In this document: one piece after another, positions 975 through 10,819 of the stretch | How positions within the stretch are numbered: the stretch's first letter is position 1 | How the letters are laid out: the number at the start of each line of letters is the position of its first letter | UHGV virus genome: UHGV-0306748 | Origin: a virus | DNA length: 11,466 nucleotides | Reading direction: 5' to 3' (one strand) | Position numbers and translations under genes: made by a program | The notes under the pieces: model-generated | What the model was told of the DNA's origin: nothing | What the model saw: the letters and a program-made list of their open reading frames with translations, nothing else | The model's database searches: none

Positions 975-1799
975 CTATTTTTTATCCAGCTTCTTGGCGG
1001 CAGATTCTAATTGTTTGATGCTTTTTTCCGGTACGGGCAGATTCTCTGGCATTGTCCCGCCTAGCTCCTGGATTGTTTGCCTAACTTTCCGGCCGACCTC
1101 GAAGTGAGTTTCATTAGCTTTTTGCTTCGATTTAACATTATCTCTGCGGAGCTTTTCTTCTGCCTGAGTCGCTCGGAACAGGTTGGCTGCCAATTCGGTA
1201 GAACCCATGTGATCGAGTATCTTTTGGCTCTTTTTAAGACCTTTTCGCTGATGGATAGCCTTTTGGTCTAACCCGCCATAAAGCCCCTTGTATCCGTGAT
1301 TCTGGAAGATTGCAAAGTCCAATGTTGTTTCAACACCAGCTTGCTGTGCTGCCTCAACAAGTTGCTTGTTGTGTTCCTTTAACTCGTTTCGGAGAAAAAG
1401 GCGCTTTTGATCCTCGCGGAGTCGCTTGAATGTTTCATCGTCAGCTAGTTCCTGCCGTCTGGTCTGTATTGCAAAATATGTTTGCCCAGCAGCAATAACT
1501 GGCTTGCTAGGATCGCCGTTCTGCACAACTAGATAGCAGGCATATCTGGACAAATGAACATCTTCCAACTCTCGTTGGGCACCAGACCCTAGAACAACCA
1601 TTTTGGTGGTATCAACGAAATGGTCTGAAACCTCTTGGTTGCTGGTTTCACACGCCTGAGCTGCTCGTGATAGAACGTTTTGAAAGTTTCGCCAATCTCG
1701 ATAATCCAGTAGTGGTGCCAAATCTCTTGCTGACCAATATTCCTGCCCTTCGCTTCCATATTGTCGTAAGTCTTCAAATGGTTGATGGTGCTCGTTCAT
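975..1799 (-). CDS. DinD-family protein, diverged paralog (copy 2), 274 aa
   Basis: Complete ORF in the track; MNEHHQPFEDLRQYGSEGQEYWSARDLAPLLDYRDWRNFQ... is collinear with copy 1 over its full length. No LexA box in its upstream region (1800-1933). Confidence 0.8.
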   Translation of the reverse strand: MNEHHQPFEDLRQYGSEGQEYWSARDLAPLLDYRDWRNFQNVLSRAAQACETSNQEVSDHFVDTTKMVVLGSGAQRELEDVHLSRYACYLVVQNGDPSKPVIAAGQTYFAIQTRRQELADDETFKRLREDQKRLFLRNELKEHNKQLVEAAQQAGVETTLDFAIFQNHGYKGLYGGLDQKAIHQRKGLKKSQKILDHMGSTELAANLFRATQAEEKLRRDNVKSKQKANETHFEVGRKVRQTIQELGGTMPENLPVPEKSIKQLESAAKKLDKK

Positions 1800-1933: not shown

Positions 1934-2293
1934 ATGAGAATGACCAGCCGCAAAAAAGAGATACTCAGCTACTTTGAACCTGATAGCCTCGATTGGGTTA
2001 CTGGTGAGATTGGTGCGCCGCCGTTCGATGTGTCGGGTGTGGCCTACCTGCTTCATGGCATGGTGTCGTTCGATAAGCGTCACCAGCTCGAATCAACCCG
2101 GCGCACACTGGAAAGCATGGTTGCTGGTGGGCTGCTTGAGCGGGTGACAGTGTATGAATCGCGCCAGATACGGCGCGGCGGTGAGACTAACGCAACGGTC
2201 GTGCGCTACGGTTTACCCGGTCAGTGCGCTGTTATGCGCGATACTGGCGGCGCTGATAACGCAATATCAGGTGAATACATGCGGGTCAGTTAA
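1934..2293 (+). CDS. Hypothetical protein, 119 aa, possibly winged-helix-like
   Basis: Only sizeable plus-strand ORF that does not lie inside another gene. AAGGAA sits 10 nt upstream of the ATG. The segment LESMVAGGLLERVTVYE resembles a wHTH recognition helix and wing. Its 3' end overlaps the convergent 2286..2828 gene by 8 nt. No family recognised. Confidence 0.45.
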   Translation: MRMTSRKKEILSYFEPDSLDWVTGEIGAPPFDVSGVAYLLHGMVSFDKRHQLESTRRTLESMVAGGLLERVTVYESRQIRRGGETNATVVRYGLPGQCAVMRDTGGADNAISGEYMRVS

Positions 2294-2828
2294 TAGCCTG
2301 CAATCTGTCGTTGATGCGGCTCAGGTCGTAAACCCGGCGTTCAATATCCAGCATCAGGAAATTGTGGATCTCGGCCTGCTCAGGATTATCAGACTCTCTG
2401 GCCTGTAATAGCAATTCATTGTAACCATGCAAGCCGCCTGAGTTTTCCGCCGGGGTGGTGCCTTTCCCACGCAGGCAGCTAATAGGCTGATTGCTCGTAT
2501 CGTGTGTTTGCTTCTCCAGCACAATGACGCAATCCCACCAGTTGCCAAAGTCATACGTGTAAACCAGCTTGTCACCATCATTCTGGAGCGCTGCCCATAG
2601 TGGTGTGATTGCCGCATTACCCATGCTTTCATCCTCACCCCATACGCGATACTCGCTACCGGGATCACCTTTACGCCCTTTCTCGAACATATACAGGTGT
2701 TCGTCATTCCAGCCAAAAGCCAACTGGATCACCGCGTGAAGTTCACTAAAGGGGATTTGCTCTGGAACCAGCACACGCCGCCATATAGGTGGTTTGCTGT
2801 CTCGGATGGTTATCTTTAGCTGGTACAT
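2286..2828 (-). CDS. pRiA4b ORF-3-like family protein, 180 aa
   Basis: N-terminus MYQLKITIRDSKPPIWRRVLVP...LHAVIQLAFGWNDEHLYMF matches the signature I recall for this family (YQLK-[IV]-x-L...PP-[IV]-WRR...GW..HL..F). ATG start at 2828. Confidence 0.7.
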   Translation of the reverse strand: MYQLKITIRDSKPPIWRRVLVPEQIPFSELHAVIQLAFGWNDEHLYMFEKGRKGDPGSEYRVWGEDESMGNAAITPLWAALQNDGDKLVYTYDFGNWWDCVIVLEKQTHDTSNQPISCLRGKGTTPAENSGGLHGYNELLLQARESDNPEQAEIHNFLMLDIERRVYDLSRINDRLQAIN

Positions 2829-2948
2829 GCAAATCCTGAATAAATGCGAATCGGAAGGATAACGATACTGACGTACTCACAATTCTGTAAAGGTGAATAA
2901 AGGAAATTTGCTTAATACGCATAAGTTACATGCGGAATAATCCCGTAT

Positions 2949-3134
2949 CTACCTGCGCGGCGCTGGCTTCTTCCACTGGTAGGCAGGTGCTCGCATCATT
3001 TCGCGGAACCTGTCGCGCCGGGCTATATCGGCATTAACTGAGCGTTCTATCTCCCGTTGATCTGCCTGTGTAAGCTGGTGGCCTCCGTGCTCAAGTTTGG
3101 CGATGGTCAATAAGGCTATTTCGCGTGGTGTCAT
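2949..3134 (-). CDS. Hypothetical small protein, 61 aa
   Basis: ORF with ATG start and a GAGGG-like SD 8 nt upstream. Basic C-terminus. No family recognised. Confidence 0.4.
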   Translation of the reverse strand: MTPREIALLTIAKLEHGGHQLTQADQREIERSVNADIARRDRFREMMRAPAYQWKKPAPRR

Positions 3135-3267
3135 ACGTCATACCCTCTGGAAGGATGAAACACGCCCGGATTAAATTTCATTTTTCGCGGGTATAAAAAA
3201 ACGATGGGGCGGGCAGTCCCGGACAGTCAGGGCTGTAGAGATTTGACTACCCCCTCCCGCTGGTGGT

Positions 3268-3549
3268 CTACCTTTGCCTCTTGCCGCCATTTAACCGGAA
3301 GGCGTTACCGTTCGGTTGCGCTATCCCCATGCGGTGTTGCGTTTCGGTAACAGCTTTATGCAGGTCGCCAAAGCCCTCAACCTTTACAGGCGGGCGCTTC
3401 ACGTTCTCCAGACACGTTTCACGGCGGCGCTTTATCCATTCCCGATCATCGTCCTCGGTGCATAACAGCATGACTTCCATCCATCGCGCTGCGGCGCGTC
3501 GGTACAGCCCTTTTGCTTCCAGATCCTCGGCTTTACTGTCGTTTACCAT
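3268..3549 (-). CDS. PerC-family transcriptional activator-like protein, 93 aa
   Basis: The segment AEDLEAKGLYRRAAARWMEVMLLCTEDDDREWIKRRRETCL matches the PerC-family pattern as I recall it. Strong SD (GGGGGAG, 6-nt spacer) before the ATG at 3549. Confidence 0.65.
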   Translation of the reverse strand: MVNDSKAEDLEAKGLYRRAAARWMEVMLLCTEDDDREWIKRRRETCLENVKRPPVKVEGFGDLHKAVTETQHRMGIAQPNGNAFRLNGGKRQR

Positions 3550-3762
3550 GTTTATCTCCCCCAGAATGGCGTTTCATCGTCGAATGGTGGGCGTTGGTCA
3601 AAATCATCAGGGGTATTATATAACTCCCATCCCGGCGCGGATTGTGTTGCGTGGCCTCCTGTGTGCCTGTAGCCTGGCTGATTCCGGTAATACTGCGGAG
3701 TTAGGTCTACCGGCATAGCTTACCCGTGGAGAAATGAATCATCGAATGAGTTTGGTCGGGAG

Positions 3763-4434
3763 TTATTCCACCAGCAAAAATGGCGTTGCCCGGTCTATGA
3801 CGTTGATGCCAATTAACGAGCTAACATTTCGACCATTCACAATGCTATCCCGTTCAAGCAAATGCGCTATTTTTTCTACTTCATACCAGTATTGAGCCAT
3901 GAGGGCTTTGGTCTTTTCAACGAGTTTAGAAAGTATTAACTCCCTGTTAATTCGCTTATCTGTAGCGCAGATTAAATCGAGCATGTCATTTACGTTAGCC
4001 ATGTCATAGCGATGAGGTAGCGAATACTTTTTGTTGAAAATATCGTTGTTTTCGTAAAGGGCTTCGCTTACTGGTCCGGCGAGGGATACAAAAGCAGCCT
4101 TTTTTGCATCGCGCTTTATACCATCCGCATAGTAACGTATGAAAGGGATAACTTTACCATTCTGCCCAACTACACCAGATTTACTATCCCGCAAACGCCC
4201 GAGATCGTGGCTGTGAATTATGCTGTGTTTAACAACGCCCAAACACTTGGCCTCATGTACATGTTCGCCAGCAACGTAACCGTATTCATCCATAACGGCG
4301 ATAACCTGTATATCTAAGCGAATAAGCCATGCAGCTACTGCATGTCCCGCTTCGTGGAATGCTACACATCGTTTACCATCACCTATCCAGTTATAGAACA
4401 TTTCATGCTCATATATCTGGTGAATGGCGCCCAT
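3763..4434 (-). CDS. Standalone FtsH-like (peptidase M41) zinc-metallopeptidase domain protein, 223 aa; no AAA+ or transmembrane region
   Basis: HEAGH zinc-binding motif at nt 4342..4356 (confirmed on the DNA) in the FtsH-like context AFHEAGHAVAAWL. A downstream MANVNDM segment resembles the FtsH GASNDI region that holds the third zinc ligand. C-terminal helices resemble the FtsH M41 C-terminus. Its ATG overlaps the upstream gene's stop (TAATG). Confidence 0.7.
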   Translation of the reverse strand: MGAIHQIYEHEMFYNWIGDGKRCVAFHEAGHAVAAWLIRLDIQVIAVMDEYGYVAGEHVHEAKCLGVVKHSIIHSHDLGRLRDSKSGVVGQNGKVIPFIRYYADGIKRDAKKAAFVSLAGPVSEALYENNDIFNKKYSLPHRYDMANVNDMLDLICATDKRINRELILSKLVEKTKALMAQYWYEVEKIAHLLERDSIVNGRNVSSLIGINVIDRATPFLLVE

Positions 4435-7857: not shown

Positions 7858-8484
7858 TCAGTGCGCCAGCGGCATTTCAGGCCAGCCGTTTTCATCCAGT
7901 TCAGCTATAAAGCTGTTGTGAAGTTCAGCAAGCGTTTCACGCCCGAACGGGGTCAACTCGCCGCGCTCCGTATCCAGCATGGCCTGATAAAACACAATGG
8001 CTTTTTCCGTACCCTGCTCAACGCCGTAGCGCTCAATCAGTGCGCCCTCGATGTTGTTCGCCATCGCAAGACGTTCCGCGAACGGATAAACCGGAAGTGC
8101 CGCTTTGCCATTGGAGTAAATCGCTACCTGCGATGAAGTGCCGTCAGACTCAGTTACCGTGGTTGTGCCGTTTTCGCGCTTCATCTCAGAAATGAACGTC
8201 GCAGCAATCAGCCAGCGCCACATAGTGACGTTATGCTGCGCGGTGAAGTCGAACCAGCCACGCGCCCCGCCATCAGCAACGGCAAAATGAATGGCGTATC
8301 CGATATCTGGCTTATCGTCGTACTCTCCGGCGTCAAGGCCGTTCACGGCGCTCTCGTAGCTGATAAGAGCAACCTGCTCATATCCCCCGGCATCATTGCG
8401 GGTCATGATATTGACGCCGTGCGGTGTGGCTTCGGCGTGTAATAAGTCGGCATTTCCCGATTTAATGGTCGGTGCGTTGCTCAT
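7858..8484 (-). CDS. Hypothetical protein, 208 aa, alpha-operon member
   Basis: ATG at 8484 overlaps the upstream stop (ATGA). Acidic protein; no family recognised. Confidence 0.55.
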   Translation of the reverse strand: MSNAPTIKSGNADLLHAEATPHGVNIMTRNDAGGYEQVALISYESAVNGLDAGEYDDKPDIGYAIHFAVADGGARGWFDFTAQHNVTMWRWLIAATFISEMKRENGTTTVTESDGTSSQVAIYSNGKAALPVYPFAERLAMANNIEGALIERYGVEQGTEKAIVFYQAMLDTERGELTPFGRETLAELHNSFIAELDENGWPEMPLAH

Positions 8485-8744
8485 GCGCTGCCCTCCGCAT
8501 CAATTCTGGCTATATCGACAATCGTCAGGACTTTACTCAGCCAGCAATACGCGATGGCTGCTTGCTCAACTTCGAGGAGTGGTAATAAATCGGTCATAAC
8601 GTGAGCCAGCCCATTGCGGGCGCGGGTCATGCGTTCTGCTGTTCGGTCTGCCAGCGTAAAATCATCCGGGTATGATTCTTTGCGAGATAGCATCGCTTCG
8701 GCTTCCAGCTCTGCCGGGTGGCGGTAGATGGTTTTTATGTTCAT
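8481..8744 (-). CDS. Hypothetical protein, 87 aa
   Basis: ATG at 8744 overlaps the upstream stop (ATGA). No family recognised. Confidence 0.5.
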   Translation of the reverse strand: MNIKTIYRHPAELEAEAMLSRKESYPDDFTLADRTAERMTRARNGLAHVMTDLLPLLEVEQAAIAYCWLSKVLTIVDIARIDAEGSA

Positions 8745-8920
8745 GCTGCCACCTCACGAATGCGGGTAATCTGGATGTGGGAAAGGCGTTCATTTCTGGC
8801 CTGATTTAGCGCCTCAGCTTTGGCGCTGATCGCGCTGCGGGCATCAACGATATAAACGAACTCGACTAATTCGCCGCTCCGGGCGGTGGCGCATCCTGCA
8901 ACACGGAAGTAATTAAGCAT
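8741..8920 (-). CDS. Hypothetical small protein, about 59 aa from ATG at 8920
   Basis: The track ORF begins at a TTG (8950). The first ATG is at 8920, overlapping the stop of the 8913.. gene by 8 nt. No family recognised. Confidence 0.4.
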   Translation of the reverse strand: MLNYFRVAGCATARSGELVEFVYIVDARSAISAKAEALNQARNERLSHIQITRIREVAA

Positions 8921-9104
8921 GTGCGCCCCCTGTGCGAATACGTCCGGCAAAAAAGCAAACGTGATCCCGCGCCAGAATGCGGCGGGCTTCCTGCTCAGTC
9001 TCTGCGGCGATATGGTGAATTTTGGCGGTAATTGTCGGCATATCGCGGCGAACTGCTGCGATAATCCAGATAAATTGCGGTTTTTGGGTAGGGGTAGTAG
9101 CCAT
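8913..9104 (-). CDS. Icd-like (host cell division inhibitor-like) small protein, 63 aa, nested in-frame at the 3' end of the upstream ORF
   Basis: ATG at 9104 preceded by AGGAGG with an 8-nt spacer. MATTPTQKPQFIWIIAAVRRD...RRILARDHVCFFAGRIRTGG resembles Icd-like proteins of P4-like elements as I recall them. Confidence 0.5.
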   Translation of the reverse strand: MATTPTQKPQFIWIIAAVRRDMPTITAKIHHIAAETEQEARRILARDHVCFFAGRIRTGGAHA

Positions 9105-9701
9105 TATGGCAGCCTCCTGTAACTGGGATTTATTCCCACCACCGGAAACGCCAATTTCACTGGTGGTGAGCTGAACAGGGTTGGCGTAACCGGCGTTACA
9201 GGAAACCGGCGCGGATCGCTCCGCCCCCATCCAGCCCACCATTACTTTTTGAGCAATATGGGCTATAGCCATATCGCTGGGAAAGAGGTGTGCAGATGCG
9301 AGGACACAAAAAAAGACGCTCGGCGCGTCATGTGTCGCCTGTAACATTATCAGGACGCCAATCCCGGCACCAGATTTTGCTGGTGCGCTATAACCATAAA
9401 CCGGGTTGGCGATAGTCGGCAAGCCCTTTTTTATGGACTCCGAATACTCACCTTCTCGCGTAACGACCCCTAATAAATCTTCCAGCGCACGCGTATTTGT
9501 CGCGAAAGTCGATGTGGAACGGTTCACAACGGTAGCAATCCAGTTCATACCACCAGCCAGCAGGGGGAATTTATTCCCCACAATCAGCTTTTTAGAGGTG
9601 ATTATTTCTTGGTTTAAAATGTCATCATTTGTCGTCATTCCCCGTGCGTGGATGTCAGGTTTTGTGAGGTTCAGGCTAAGTTTTGCTAAGTCATTAACCA
9701 T
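8913..9701 (-). CDS. Ash-family-like protein; start uncertain; reads in-frame through the Icd-like segment
   Basis: The track ORF starts at a GTG (9872) inside the DUF4222-like gene. The first ATGs after that gene's stop are at 9701 and 9638. The segment KSGAGIGV...PVSCNAGYANPVQLTTSEIGVSGGGNKSQ resembles the P4 Ash family as I recall it. No stop separates it from the Icd-like region. Confidence 0.4.
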   Translation of the reverse strand: MVNDLAKLSLNLTKPDIHARGMTTNDDILNQEIITSKKLIVGNKFPLLAGGMNWIATVVNRSTSTFATNTRALEDLLGVVTREGEYSESIKKGLPTIANPVYGYSAPAKSGAGIGVLIMLQATHDAPSVFFCVLASAHLFPSDMAIAHIAQKVMVGWMGAERSAPVSCNAGYANPVQLTTSEIGVSGGGNKSQLQEAAIMATTPTQKPQFIWIIAAVRRDMPTITAKIHHIAAETEQEARRILARDHVCFFAGRIRTGGAHA

Positions 9702-9810
9702 AACAATTGATAACAGGCAGCCGTTCGCGACCTTTGGTTTTATAAGGTTGTAAGGGTTAACATTTGTTAACAGGCTAGCCAGATTAAAGGCTTCTTTCTG
9801 GGCGGCAGGT

Positions 9811-9993
9811 TCATTCAGTATCACGGCGCACCTCCACGAACTCATTAACGAATCTCTCCAAAGGCTGAACACATGGCGACTGATAGCCCTCGCGGTAAAA
9901 GGTCACTCGGTTATGCTCGACGCGCTGTACGGTCACTACAGCCCCGTGCGAATCCTTGTAACGGCTTCCCGGCATCGGATTATGGTTACGCAT
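9811..9993 (-). CDS. DUF4222-like small protein, 60 aa
   Basis: ATG at 9993 with a GGAGG SD at 6 nt; overlaps the upstream stop by 8 nt. The pattern ...VTFYREGYQSPCVQPLERFVNEFVEV resembles small proteins common in P4-like elements. Confidence 0.5.
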   Translation of the reverse strand: MRNHNPMPGSRYKDSHGAVVTVQRVEHNRVTFYREGYQSPCVQPLERFVNEFVEVRRDTE

Positions 9994-10819
9994 GGTTTAC
10001 CTCCAGACGTTTAGTGAGCCAGCGTTGCGACAGGCGGGTGAGTTCTCCTTTGCGCTGCTCATATTCCATGCCCATATCAATTAGCGTGATATTGGTGCTT
10101 TCCAGATAGGAGAGGTGTTCAAGCTGTGCTGCGTTCATATGGTCGCGAGGTTCGCCAGTAATGCCATTTGCCTGCGCCCACTGCTTCGCCGTCATGCCAC
10201 CCAGCACGATACGGGCGATCATGTTGCTCTCGTTGCTGTAGTGGCGCTGCTGCGTCGTTTTACCCAGCTCGGCACGGGCCATATTCAGCGCATCGCACAT
10301 TGGCTTAAAGTTGTTTGCGGCACTGATACGGGCTTTTAGCTGGCGACGATAGCGGGCGGCGATTTCAGGCACGCTACGCTGTAATTCTTCCTCGCACTGG
10401 ATGAAATAACGGCGGATAGCGCGGCCCTGTTCGGTGCGTTCGACCATCGCCAGTTCTTTCGCCATTCCGACACTTAACAGATAGTCTTTGCCGGGTCTGC
10501 CAGACTGCTTAATCTTGCTGTAAGCCGCGCCATTCGGGCTTTTCCCCAGATTTGGGGAAATAGTTTTATGGACTGAGTAATCGTGCCCAATGGTGAAGTC
10601 ATATTCAGAGATGCGATCAGTGATCCATGTAGAGAAGTCTTTTCCCACGCCCAACGCTTTGTGTAACGCTTTTGCGCTAACAATATTGGTTTCACGCCCA
10701 CCGATATGACCAGGAATAACCGGGACAATTGCGGCAAATTCATTACCGTTAATTGTGCCCTGATAGGCGTTCAGATGAGGGGCGGCCTCAGAAATTAATC
10801 TGCTTTTTTCGATGTTCAT
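9986..10819 (-). CDS. Phage antirepressor-like protein (AntA/KilAC-type), 277 aa
   Basis: The N-terminal region (AIVPVIPGHIGGRETNIVSAKALHKALGVGKDFSTWITDRI) and a central region (GMAKELAMVERTEQGRAIRRYFIQCEEEL) resemble Ant/KilAC antirepressor domains. GGAG SD 7 nt before the ATG at 10819. Confidence 0.55.
   Translation of the reverse strand: MNIEKSRLISEAAPHLNAYQGTINGNEFAAIVPVIPGHIGGRETNIVSAKALHKALGVGKDFSTWITDRISEYDFTIGHDYSVHKTISPNLGKSPNGAAYSKIKQSGRPGKDYLLSVGMAKELAMVERTEQGRAIRRYFIQCEEELQRSVPEIAARYRRQLKARISAANNFKPMCDALNMARAELGKTTQQRHYSNESNMIARIVLGGMTAKQWAQANGITGEPRDHMNAAQLEHLSYLESTNITLIDMGMEYEQRKGELTRLSQRWLTKRLEVNHA

Follow-up and report, generated by a model that had tools for sequence, protein, structure and literature searches.

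An Icd-like gene nested in a long reading frame across isrK- and C4-type RNA genes: a probable counterpart of the P4 eta/kil pair in virus genome UHGV-0306748

The virus genome UHGV-0306748 was analysed over a stretch of 11,466 nucleotides (nt), hereafter called the window, which carries on its minus strand an Icd-like gene at the 3' end of a long open reading frame (ORF), in the same frame and with a Shine-Dalgarno sequence of its own. The locus raises the question of what the long frame serves, since the initial annotation had proposed that a long fusion protein and a short Icd-like protein might be made from one frame, with a lost stop codon that joined two separate genes as the alternative. 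The sequence features on which this proposal was built are borne out. No stop separates the upstream, 'Ash-like' part from the Icd-like part, the minus-strand frame being open to 8913, and AGGAGG (CCTCCT at 9113-9118) is found 8 nt ahead of the internal ATG 9104 (CAT at 9102-9104). The motif as such is not enriched in the window (5 sites versus 3.7 expected).

Judged by homology, the locus appears to be the counterpart of the eta/kil pair of P4, i.e., a new copy of a known device. We consider it, with a probability of roughly 0.8, an immunity/anti-immunity module of a P4-like satellite or a phage-inducible chromosomal island (PICI), the module being a homolog of P4 eta-kil together with the seqA and CI RNAs that lie inside it. 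The positions of all features are compiled in Table 1.

RNA genes beneath the Ash homology

The label 'Ash-like' stands as far as the profile match is concerned. Pfam PF10554 (Phage_ASH) matches amino acids (aa) 160-264 of the listed ORF (9872..8913, minus strand, 319 aa counted from the first possible GTG, C-terminus ...QEAAIMATTPTQKPQFIWIIAAVRRD...GGAHA followed by the stop) with 86 bits against a cut-off of 26. As a statement of protein homology the label does not stand: the match corresponds to nt 9395-9081 and covers exactly an isrK-type small RNA gene, a spacer, a C4 antisense RNA gene, the Shine-Dalgarno sequence, and the first Icd codons, and is a translation of the isrK/seqA and C4/CI RNA genes. 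The isrK gene ends in an intrinsic terminator made up of a hairpin (9329-9315) and a U-run, in agreement with a terminator scan, and for C4 compensatory double changes were observed in 19 of 28 pairs (RNAalifold, 44 homologs). Read in the frame of the long ORF, the isrK-spacer-C4 stretch has no codon periodicity (entropy 0.57/0.57/0.54 by codon position); the Icd core, with 0.36/0.24/1.00, has a clear coding signature. By the same measure, purifying selection at the amino-acid level, as in a protein domain, was not observed in the Phage_ASH region, in which nucleotides and base pairs are conserved and amino acids are poorly conserved. What Phage_ASH detects in protein space is thus, in effect, isrK plus C4. 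Its recognition as a translated RNA cassette, not a protein domain, may be new.

In P4 (NC_001609, L038), PF10554 matches aa 22-146 of Eta (8168-8767, minus strand), the stretch with seqA and CI, and not epsilon; P4 epsilon (7888-8175, minus strand) matches PF25738 'Derepression'. PF10554/Ash has been equated with P4 epsilon and used as the epsilon profile for the detection of P4-like satellites (PMC8628076). As a marker it therefore finds the immunity-RNA region instead of epsilon.

The specificity loop of C4 is complementary both to the seqC-like target at the Icd start and to the seqA-like target in isrK (Table 1), and its duplex with the Icd translation start comprises 13 pairs with -19.7 kcal/mol. 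Across the homologous loci described in the next section 28 distinct C4 loops occur, and loop, Shine-Dalgarno region and isrK site covary. Cognate pairing of loop and Shine-Dalgarno region amounts to a median of 10 contiguous pairs with a minimum of 8, and that of loop and isrK linker to a median of 9, whereas non-cognate combinations have a median of 5 pairs and reach 9 pairs in only 4%. Because each loop pairs with its own Shine-Dalgarno region, the Icd Shine-Dalgarno sequence represents an antisense target of the seqC/b2 type. Ahead of the Icd start, GAGGCTGCC is nearly invariant among homologs. The Icd-like protein itself matches NCBIfam NF033153 (phage_ICD_like) with E=1e-20 and a score about equal to that of P4 Kil, and most Icd homologs are stand-alone proteins of 62-66 aa.

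A putative internal promoter is located in a block just 5' of isrK that is nearly invariant in alignment A1, its match to the consensus being weak. TGgcTATAGC (9271-9262), in the interval from the isrK terminator to C4, was considered as a further promoter and rejected: only a partial -10 match is present, and the idea is speculative because the P4 transcript from the eta-internal promoter involves seqA and CI, as stated in the summary of PMC10111431.

Given that isrK, C4, and the Shine-Dalgarno region make up exactly the Phage_ASH stretch, and that base pairs instead of codons are conserved in it, the 'Ash' ORF could be a pure annotation artefact. The RNA genes would then be stop-free by chance, nothing 5' of ATG 9104 would be translated, and the continuity with icd would be coincidental. 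The frequent designation of the ash ORF as a pseudogene by the Prokaryotic Genome Annotation Pipeline (PGAP) is in agreement with this explanation, which is examined below against the behaviour of the frame in other loci.

The open frame in homologous loci

For the comparison, 31 Icd-encoding loci from different species and 80 loci from viral contigs were collected in addition to the window and P4. The 110 loci analysed correspond to 94 distinct sequences, in which isrK and C4 were located by Rfam or nhmmer profiles. The frame followed is the one that reads the AUG at C4 nucleotides 5-7, which by analogy is taken to correspond to the start of Gifsy-1 orf45.

In 93 of the 94 distinct loci no stop interrupts this frame along isrK, spacer, and C4. 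Of the 91 distinct loci in which isrK was located, all but one also keep it open for at least 84 nt (median 351, up to 693) 5' of isrK, where it crosses sequence that is non-homologous between loci. Six lengths (102, 105, 129, 132, 144, and 189 nt) were observed for the interval between the start of isrK and the C4 AUG, and each of them is divisible by 3; two phages that lack a long ORF have intervals of 101 and 127 nt. A distance of 143 nt together with a broken long frame was observed solely for L041, a contig from IMG/VR, and probably reflects either a frameshift in this copy or an error in sequencing.

An annotation artefact is difficult to reconcile with a frame that stays open for 84-693 nt through mosaic sequence in 90 of 91 loci and with six spacer classes that are all multiples of three. 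The same holds for the start with a Shine-Dalgarno sequence and an overlap with the preceding stop, present in the window as well as in P4, for the +1 frame of icd, which is kept clear of stops in precisely the loci whose long ORF runs in it (see below), and for the translation reported for P4 eta (PMC10111431) and for Gifsy-1 orf45 (PMC4825925). Due to the open frame far upstream, the multiple-of-three spacers, and the homology to P4 eta/kil, the artefact hypothesis was dropped, and we regard it as very unlikely.

The alternative of a lost stop codon depends on whether a stop normally separates the two genes. Between C4 and the Icd start, none of the 94 distinct loci contains a stop in the frame of the long ORF. 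The long ORF and icd share one frame in 41 of them, among these the window and P4; in the remaining 53 the long ORF runs in the +1 frame of icd, and the +2 frame is never used. The +1 class results from a Shine-Dalgarno-ATG junction that is 1 nt shorter. A recent lost stop or frameshift that fused separate ash and icd genes in this copy only would be in line with a small indel between Shine-Dalgarno sequence and ATG that distinguishes the window from Escherichia coli XB2 and W46, in both of which PGAP annotates a separate 64-aa Icd plus an ash pseudogene. It would also be in line with the +1 frame of the window's own icd, which is still stop-free, as after a recent switch of frame class. The comparison nevertheless led to rejection of this alternative. 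Apart from the missing stops, the in-frame state is found in distinct sequences from many genera as well as in P4, E. coli and Klebsiella commonly encode full-length in-frame proteins of 238-249 aa, and in the out-of-frame class the long ORF runs across icd in +1 instead of ending before it. A fusion particular to this copy is hardly credible.

In the +1 class, the frame used by the long ORF is stop-free across icd in all 53 loci, as opposed to 9 of the 41 in-frame loci, the chance of a stop-free +1 frame being 0.02-0.85 per cluster in synonymous-codon shuffles. In 51 of the 53 loci the long ORF continues into the next gene. It joins this gene in frame, and the ATG of the latter overlaps the icd stop, e.g., CACATGATTAA. 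Examples of this class are L002, L003, L012, L014, L018, L022, L027, L028, L030, and L032 as well as about 40 viral-contig loci (roughly 1360-1900); PGAP labels such long ORFs as 'ash' pseudogenes 'missing C-terminus'.

Since the frame relative to icd switches, the frame in use is stop-free across icd, and the spacers are all multiples of three, we read these patterns as selection that keeps an uninterrupted path for ribosomes rather than a particular fusion protein. The switch between 0 and +1 by 1-nt indels at the Shine-Dalgarno-ATG junction fits a ribosome track. That the long eta-like ORF is kept only as such a track, and not for its protein, has about an even chance in our estimation.

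Alternatively, the long product could be a functional regulatory fusion of the 'Bro-network' or antirepressor type, with selection acting on its amino acids including the Icd domain. Its N-terminal 143 aa have protein homologs over the full length at 37-46% identity, with a conserved N-terminus and indels in multiples of three codons. Phage_ASH is listed among the Bro-network domains in PMC10111431, and in SfV (L004 832-1668) the cassette lies within a 279-codon open frame annotated as coding sequence orf37, 'transcriptional regulator'. However, 53 of the 94 loci read icd in +1 and would end in an unrelated C-terminus, the isrK-to-C4 part lacks a coding signature, and the N-terminal halves of the eta-like ORFs are mosaic, of low complexity, and spread over 26-32-nt DNA repeats. 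In addition, no family was found for the N-terminal 143 aa in Pfam, NCBIfam, or PHROGs. We therefore consider selection on a fusion protein unlikely.

The long ORF as the host of the nested Icd gene, as initially annotated, is retained, but its start is to be moved from ATG 9701, ahead of which no Shine-Dalgarno sequence is present and which sits inside a 26-aa insertion absent from homologs. GTG 9824 is the likely start. A start at this codon matches the N-terminus MILNEPAAQKEA... common to the homologs of 238-249 aa, and the 303-aa coding sequence predicted by PGAP in a 99.8% identical E. coli chromosome begins there as well. The overlap of GTG 9824 with the stop of the DUF4222 gene (9813-9811, minus strand) suggests that the long ORF is translationally coupled to this gene. 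The insertion (NLIKP...NLTKP), which is particular to the lineage of the window, is bordered by a direct repeat, TAACAATTGATAACAGGC and TAACATTTGTTAACAGGC, at 9701-9718 and 9758-9775.

The repeats in the N-terminal halves, e.g., GGAAGRTTTTTCnGAnATCACnACGCGAG and TTTCGAGACCAGTACGCGCACG, were observed in L007:1036-1183, L011:1055-1206, L027:816-1125, and in the window at 9451-9507 (minus strand). Copy numbers are 2-3 per family in the other loci and about one of each in the window. The repeats look like iterons or operators. Some are spaced by lengths not divisible by 3, yet the ORF is open across them.

P4 eta/kil and a proposed mode of action

In P4, the ORF 8812..8168 contains isrK (8692-8615) and C4, i.e., CI RNA (8507-8420), both by Rfam matches, and ends in a 65-aa Kil segment (MATTLTPSHPEF...) that is the homolog of the window's Icd-like protein. 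BLASTP of the window ORF against P4 Eta gives E=1e-23, the junction QEAAIMATT is present in both, and PHROG 6928, the family of the P4 'cI' ORF, matches aa 127-296 of the window ORF. Kil and eta are nested genes (PMC10111431, citing Forti et al. 1999, J Bacteriol 181:5225). In the same summary, CI is encoded within eta, Kil is a truncated Eta made from an internal start (both citing Forti et al. 1999), full-length Eta is made only from the upstream late promoter and coupled to the alpA homolog, and Eta translation prevents termination.

The two loci are alike in several respects. The eta ATG overlaps the vis stop (GCATGATGATG) as GTG 9824 overlaps the DUF4222 stop, seqA/isrK and CI/C4 are situated inside the long ORF, and an in-frame Kil/Icd of about 65 aa is preceded by a separate Shine-Dalgarno sequence. 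In both, the C4 loop can pair with the Kil/Icd Shine-Dalgarno region and with an upstream site, and the module is located upstream of a P4-family primase operon. In contrast to P4, the N-terminal part in the window is unrelated to Eta and longer (303 versus about 199 aa for the whole product), the gene before the long ORF is DUF4222, following AntA, instead of vis/alpA directly, and the isrK-C4 spacer measures 62 nt rather than 107 nt. Kil and the window's Icd share only about 40% identity, and the specificity loop is UUUCCUGUAAC in the window versus AUCCUGUGAA in P4. Thus the initial proposal of a long and a short product from one frame is supported by the homology to P4 eta/kil and by the conserved open frame; both products would be expected here by analogy.

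As precedent the initial annotation had named the in-frame nested genes ant1/ant2 of phage P1. The P1/P7 immI operon consists of the c4 antisense RNA, icd, and ant1/ant2, and the nested pair is ant1/ant2, not icd. P4 eta/kil is a closer precedent than P1. Likenesses to the P1 type, represented by phage D6, are C4 upstream of icd, a loop that targets the icd ribosome-binding site, an upstream site of the a1/b1 type, and a homologous Icd. In D6, however, the frame over C4 (L005 1192-1438) comprises just 45 codons, like Gifsy-1 orf45, and is closed upstream, without a long nested ORF; furthermore, ant follows icd, whereas AntA of the window lies upstream of it at 10819-9986, and the window ORFs downstream of icd (59, 87, 208, and 113 aa) show no Ant domain in Pfam, NCBIfam, or PHROGs.

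In Gifsy-1, isrK is likewise a small RNA with a leaky terminator, and an ORF over a C4-like RNA is conserved in nucleotides, not in protein. IsrK is a structural homolog of P4 SeqA, and orf45, which overlaps the C4-like RNA STnc1160, is translated and couples translation into the next gene (PMC4825925). The isrK-orf45-anrP arrangement differs from the window in that a short 45-codon ORF is followed by an antirepressor gene, whereas in the window the frame is open up to 9872 and is followed by Icd. For both CI and seqA, relatives were picked up by the Rfam C4 and isrK models inside 'Bro' genes of PICIs, according to PMC10111431, and the 'Bro zone' of PICIs and helper-embedded PICIs described there resembles the window in its neighbourhood of AlpA, antirepressor, Ash, primase, and PerC. 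The gene neighbourhood of the 'Ash family protein' of EcCIMP1-like PICIs also matches (PMC11773190). Many Stx, SfV-like, and P1-like phages (265 phage records) carry the cassette of isrK and C4 with varied downstream genes; in the Stx-type phage phi345 (L006 1185-1402), the annotation of the cassette consists of two small hypothetical proteins upstream of Ant.

With the RNA genes, their covariation and complementarity, the homology to P4, and the conservation of the open frame established by the comparison, and with promoter, processing, Rho-dependent termination, and synthesis of both proteins carried over from P4 by analogy, the following mode of action is conceivable. A constitutive internal promoter just 5' of 9386 would give rise to an untranslated leader, part of which would stop at the isrK terminator, and the readthrough portion would be processed into a stable C4/CI-like RNA. 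Pairing of the C4 loop (9205-9195) with the Icd Shine-Dalgarno region (9123-9113) and with the isrK site would block Icd translation and, as in P4, lead to premature termination before the replication (primase) genes. On transcripts from the AlpA-AntA-DUF4222 operon, ribosomes would enter at GTG 9824 and traverse isrK, C4, the Shine-Dalgarno sequence, and icd. Their transit would prevent antisense pairing and termination, so that upstream transcripts would evade immunity and the primase operon would be expressed from them. Indirect support for such relief of termination by translation comes from the open frame, which is conserved in either of two frames. Whenever its Shine-Dalgarno sequence is free, the short Icd/Kil-like protein would be made from ATG 9104; the long product would come only from upstream transcripts.

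Several points weigh against this interpretation. Both proteins and both RNAs of the present element are predicted from its sequence, the experimentally characterised system being that of P4. The P4 mechanism is taken from a secondary summary (PMC10111431). Five of the 31 loci from different species (L029, L031, L033, L034, and L037), mostly the more distant ones, have no C4 at gathering level and stand outside the frame statistics, and the frame counts are not independent because the loci are related by descent. A consensus promoter scan yielded no minus-strand promoter within 8850-10050. In view of its N-terminal homologs, the long product may also be functional in itself, over and above ribosome transit.

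The arrangement itself is that of the known, little-cited P4 eta/kil pair, and the practical value of the present locus lies mainly in annotation. The comparative results, namely the two frame classes, the avoidance of stops in +1, the multiple-of-three spacers, and the three-way covariation of specificity, may be new; frame classes, spacer lengths, and specificity covariation were not found mentioned in the accessible parts of PMC10111431 and PMC11773190. They offer a cheap and testable approach to the question of how, in satellites, antisense-RNA immunity is overridden by translation. If the long ORF indeed serves as a ribosome track, Phage_ASH, or the 'ash family protein' of NCBI, would be a pseudo-domain, i.e., two immunity RNA genes read in frame, and P4-like satellites and PICIs would fall into immunity groups defined by the approximately 28 triplets of loop, Shine-Dalgarno region, and isrK site.

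Feature positions, annotation, and gene neighbourhood

Table 1. Features of the eta/kil-like locus and its surroundings in the window.
Feature	Position	Strand	Description
DUF4222 gene	9811..9993	-	PF13973, E=1.4e-22; directly upstream of the long ORF
Shine-Dalgarno GGAGG of the long ORF	9831..9835	-	6 nt 5' of GTG 9824
Eta-like long ORF	8913..9824	-	303 aa from GTG 9824; crosses both RNA genes; stop shared with Icd
Putative internal promoter, P4 PLE analog	9393..9422	-	TTGCCG 9422-9417, 18-nt spacer, TATGGT 9398-9393, +1 near 9386
isrK-type small RNA	9309..9386	-	Rfam RF01394, 75 bits versus gathering 50; structural homolog of P4 seqA
seqA-like target in isrK linker	9338..9346	-	UGUUACAGG; complementary to C4 loop
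C4 antisense RNA	9159..9246	-	Rfam RF01695, 76.9 bits versus gathering 45; homolog of P4 CI RNA
AUG at C4 nucleotides 5-7	9240..9242	-	Long-ORF frame; start used by gene callers for 106-110-aa 'Ash domain' products
C4 specificity loop	9195..9205	-	UUUCCUGUAAC; seqB equivalent
seqC-like target	9113..9123	-	GUUACAGGAGG; contains AGGAGG Shine-Dalgarno 9118-9113; complementary to C4 loop
Icd/Kil-like gene	8913..9104	-	63 aa, in frame at 3' end of long ORF; protein begins MATTPTQKPQFIWIIAAVRRD...
Next gene	8741..8920	-	59 aa; ATG 8920 overlaps Icd stop (ATGCTTAA); +1 frame of icd
P4 alpha-type primase	7547-5073		824 aa; Zn_Ribbon_Prim, Toprim_3, D5_N, DUF5906; PGAP 'phage/plasmid primase, P4 family'

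RefSeq records treat the locus differently: some carry a 303-aa 'Icd-like protein', others a pseudogene named 'ash family protein' together with a 64-aa Icd, and still others small hypothetical ORFs. The isrK and C4 RNA genes are listed in none of the annotated records examined.

Upstream of the long ORF the genes are arranged in the order AlpA, a 144-aa ORF, AntA, and DUF4222, and the junctions from AlpA to the P4-family primase overlap, as in one operon. For the small ORFs downstream of icd, no family was found in Pfam, NCBIfam, or PHROGs. Downstream of the primase, the region 2286-4434 (minus strand) encodes PerC (3549-3268), a PRiA4_ORF3 protein (2828-2286), and a 223-aa ORF (4434-3763) with a zinc-protease-like motif at sub-threshold level only. 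Together with a Bro-N gene (975-1799), the neighbours AlpA, AntA, P4-family primase, PerC, and PRiA4_ORF3 are consistent with a P4-like satellite or PICI.

Two 62-aa ORFs at 421-609 and 1589-1777 (minus strand), which begin with MKKYGIMALKGKNFGQLENWH... and MKTYDNMEAKGRNIGQQEIWH..., are about 55% alike by eye. The ORF at 1589-1777 overlaps the 5' part of the Bro-N gene in another frame, and a truncated second copy of the 5' region of this gene is probably located near 420-610.

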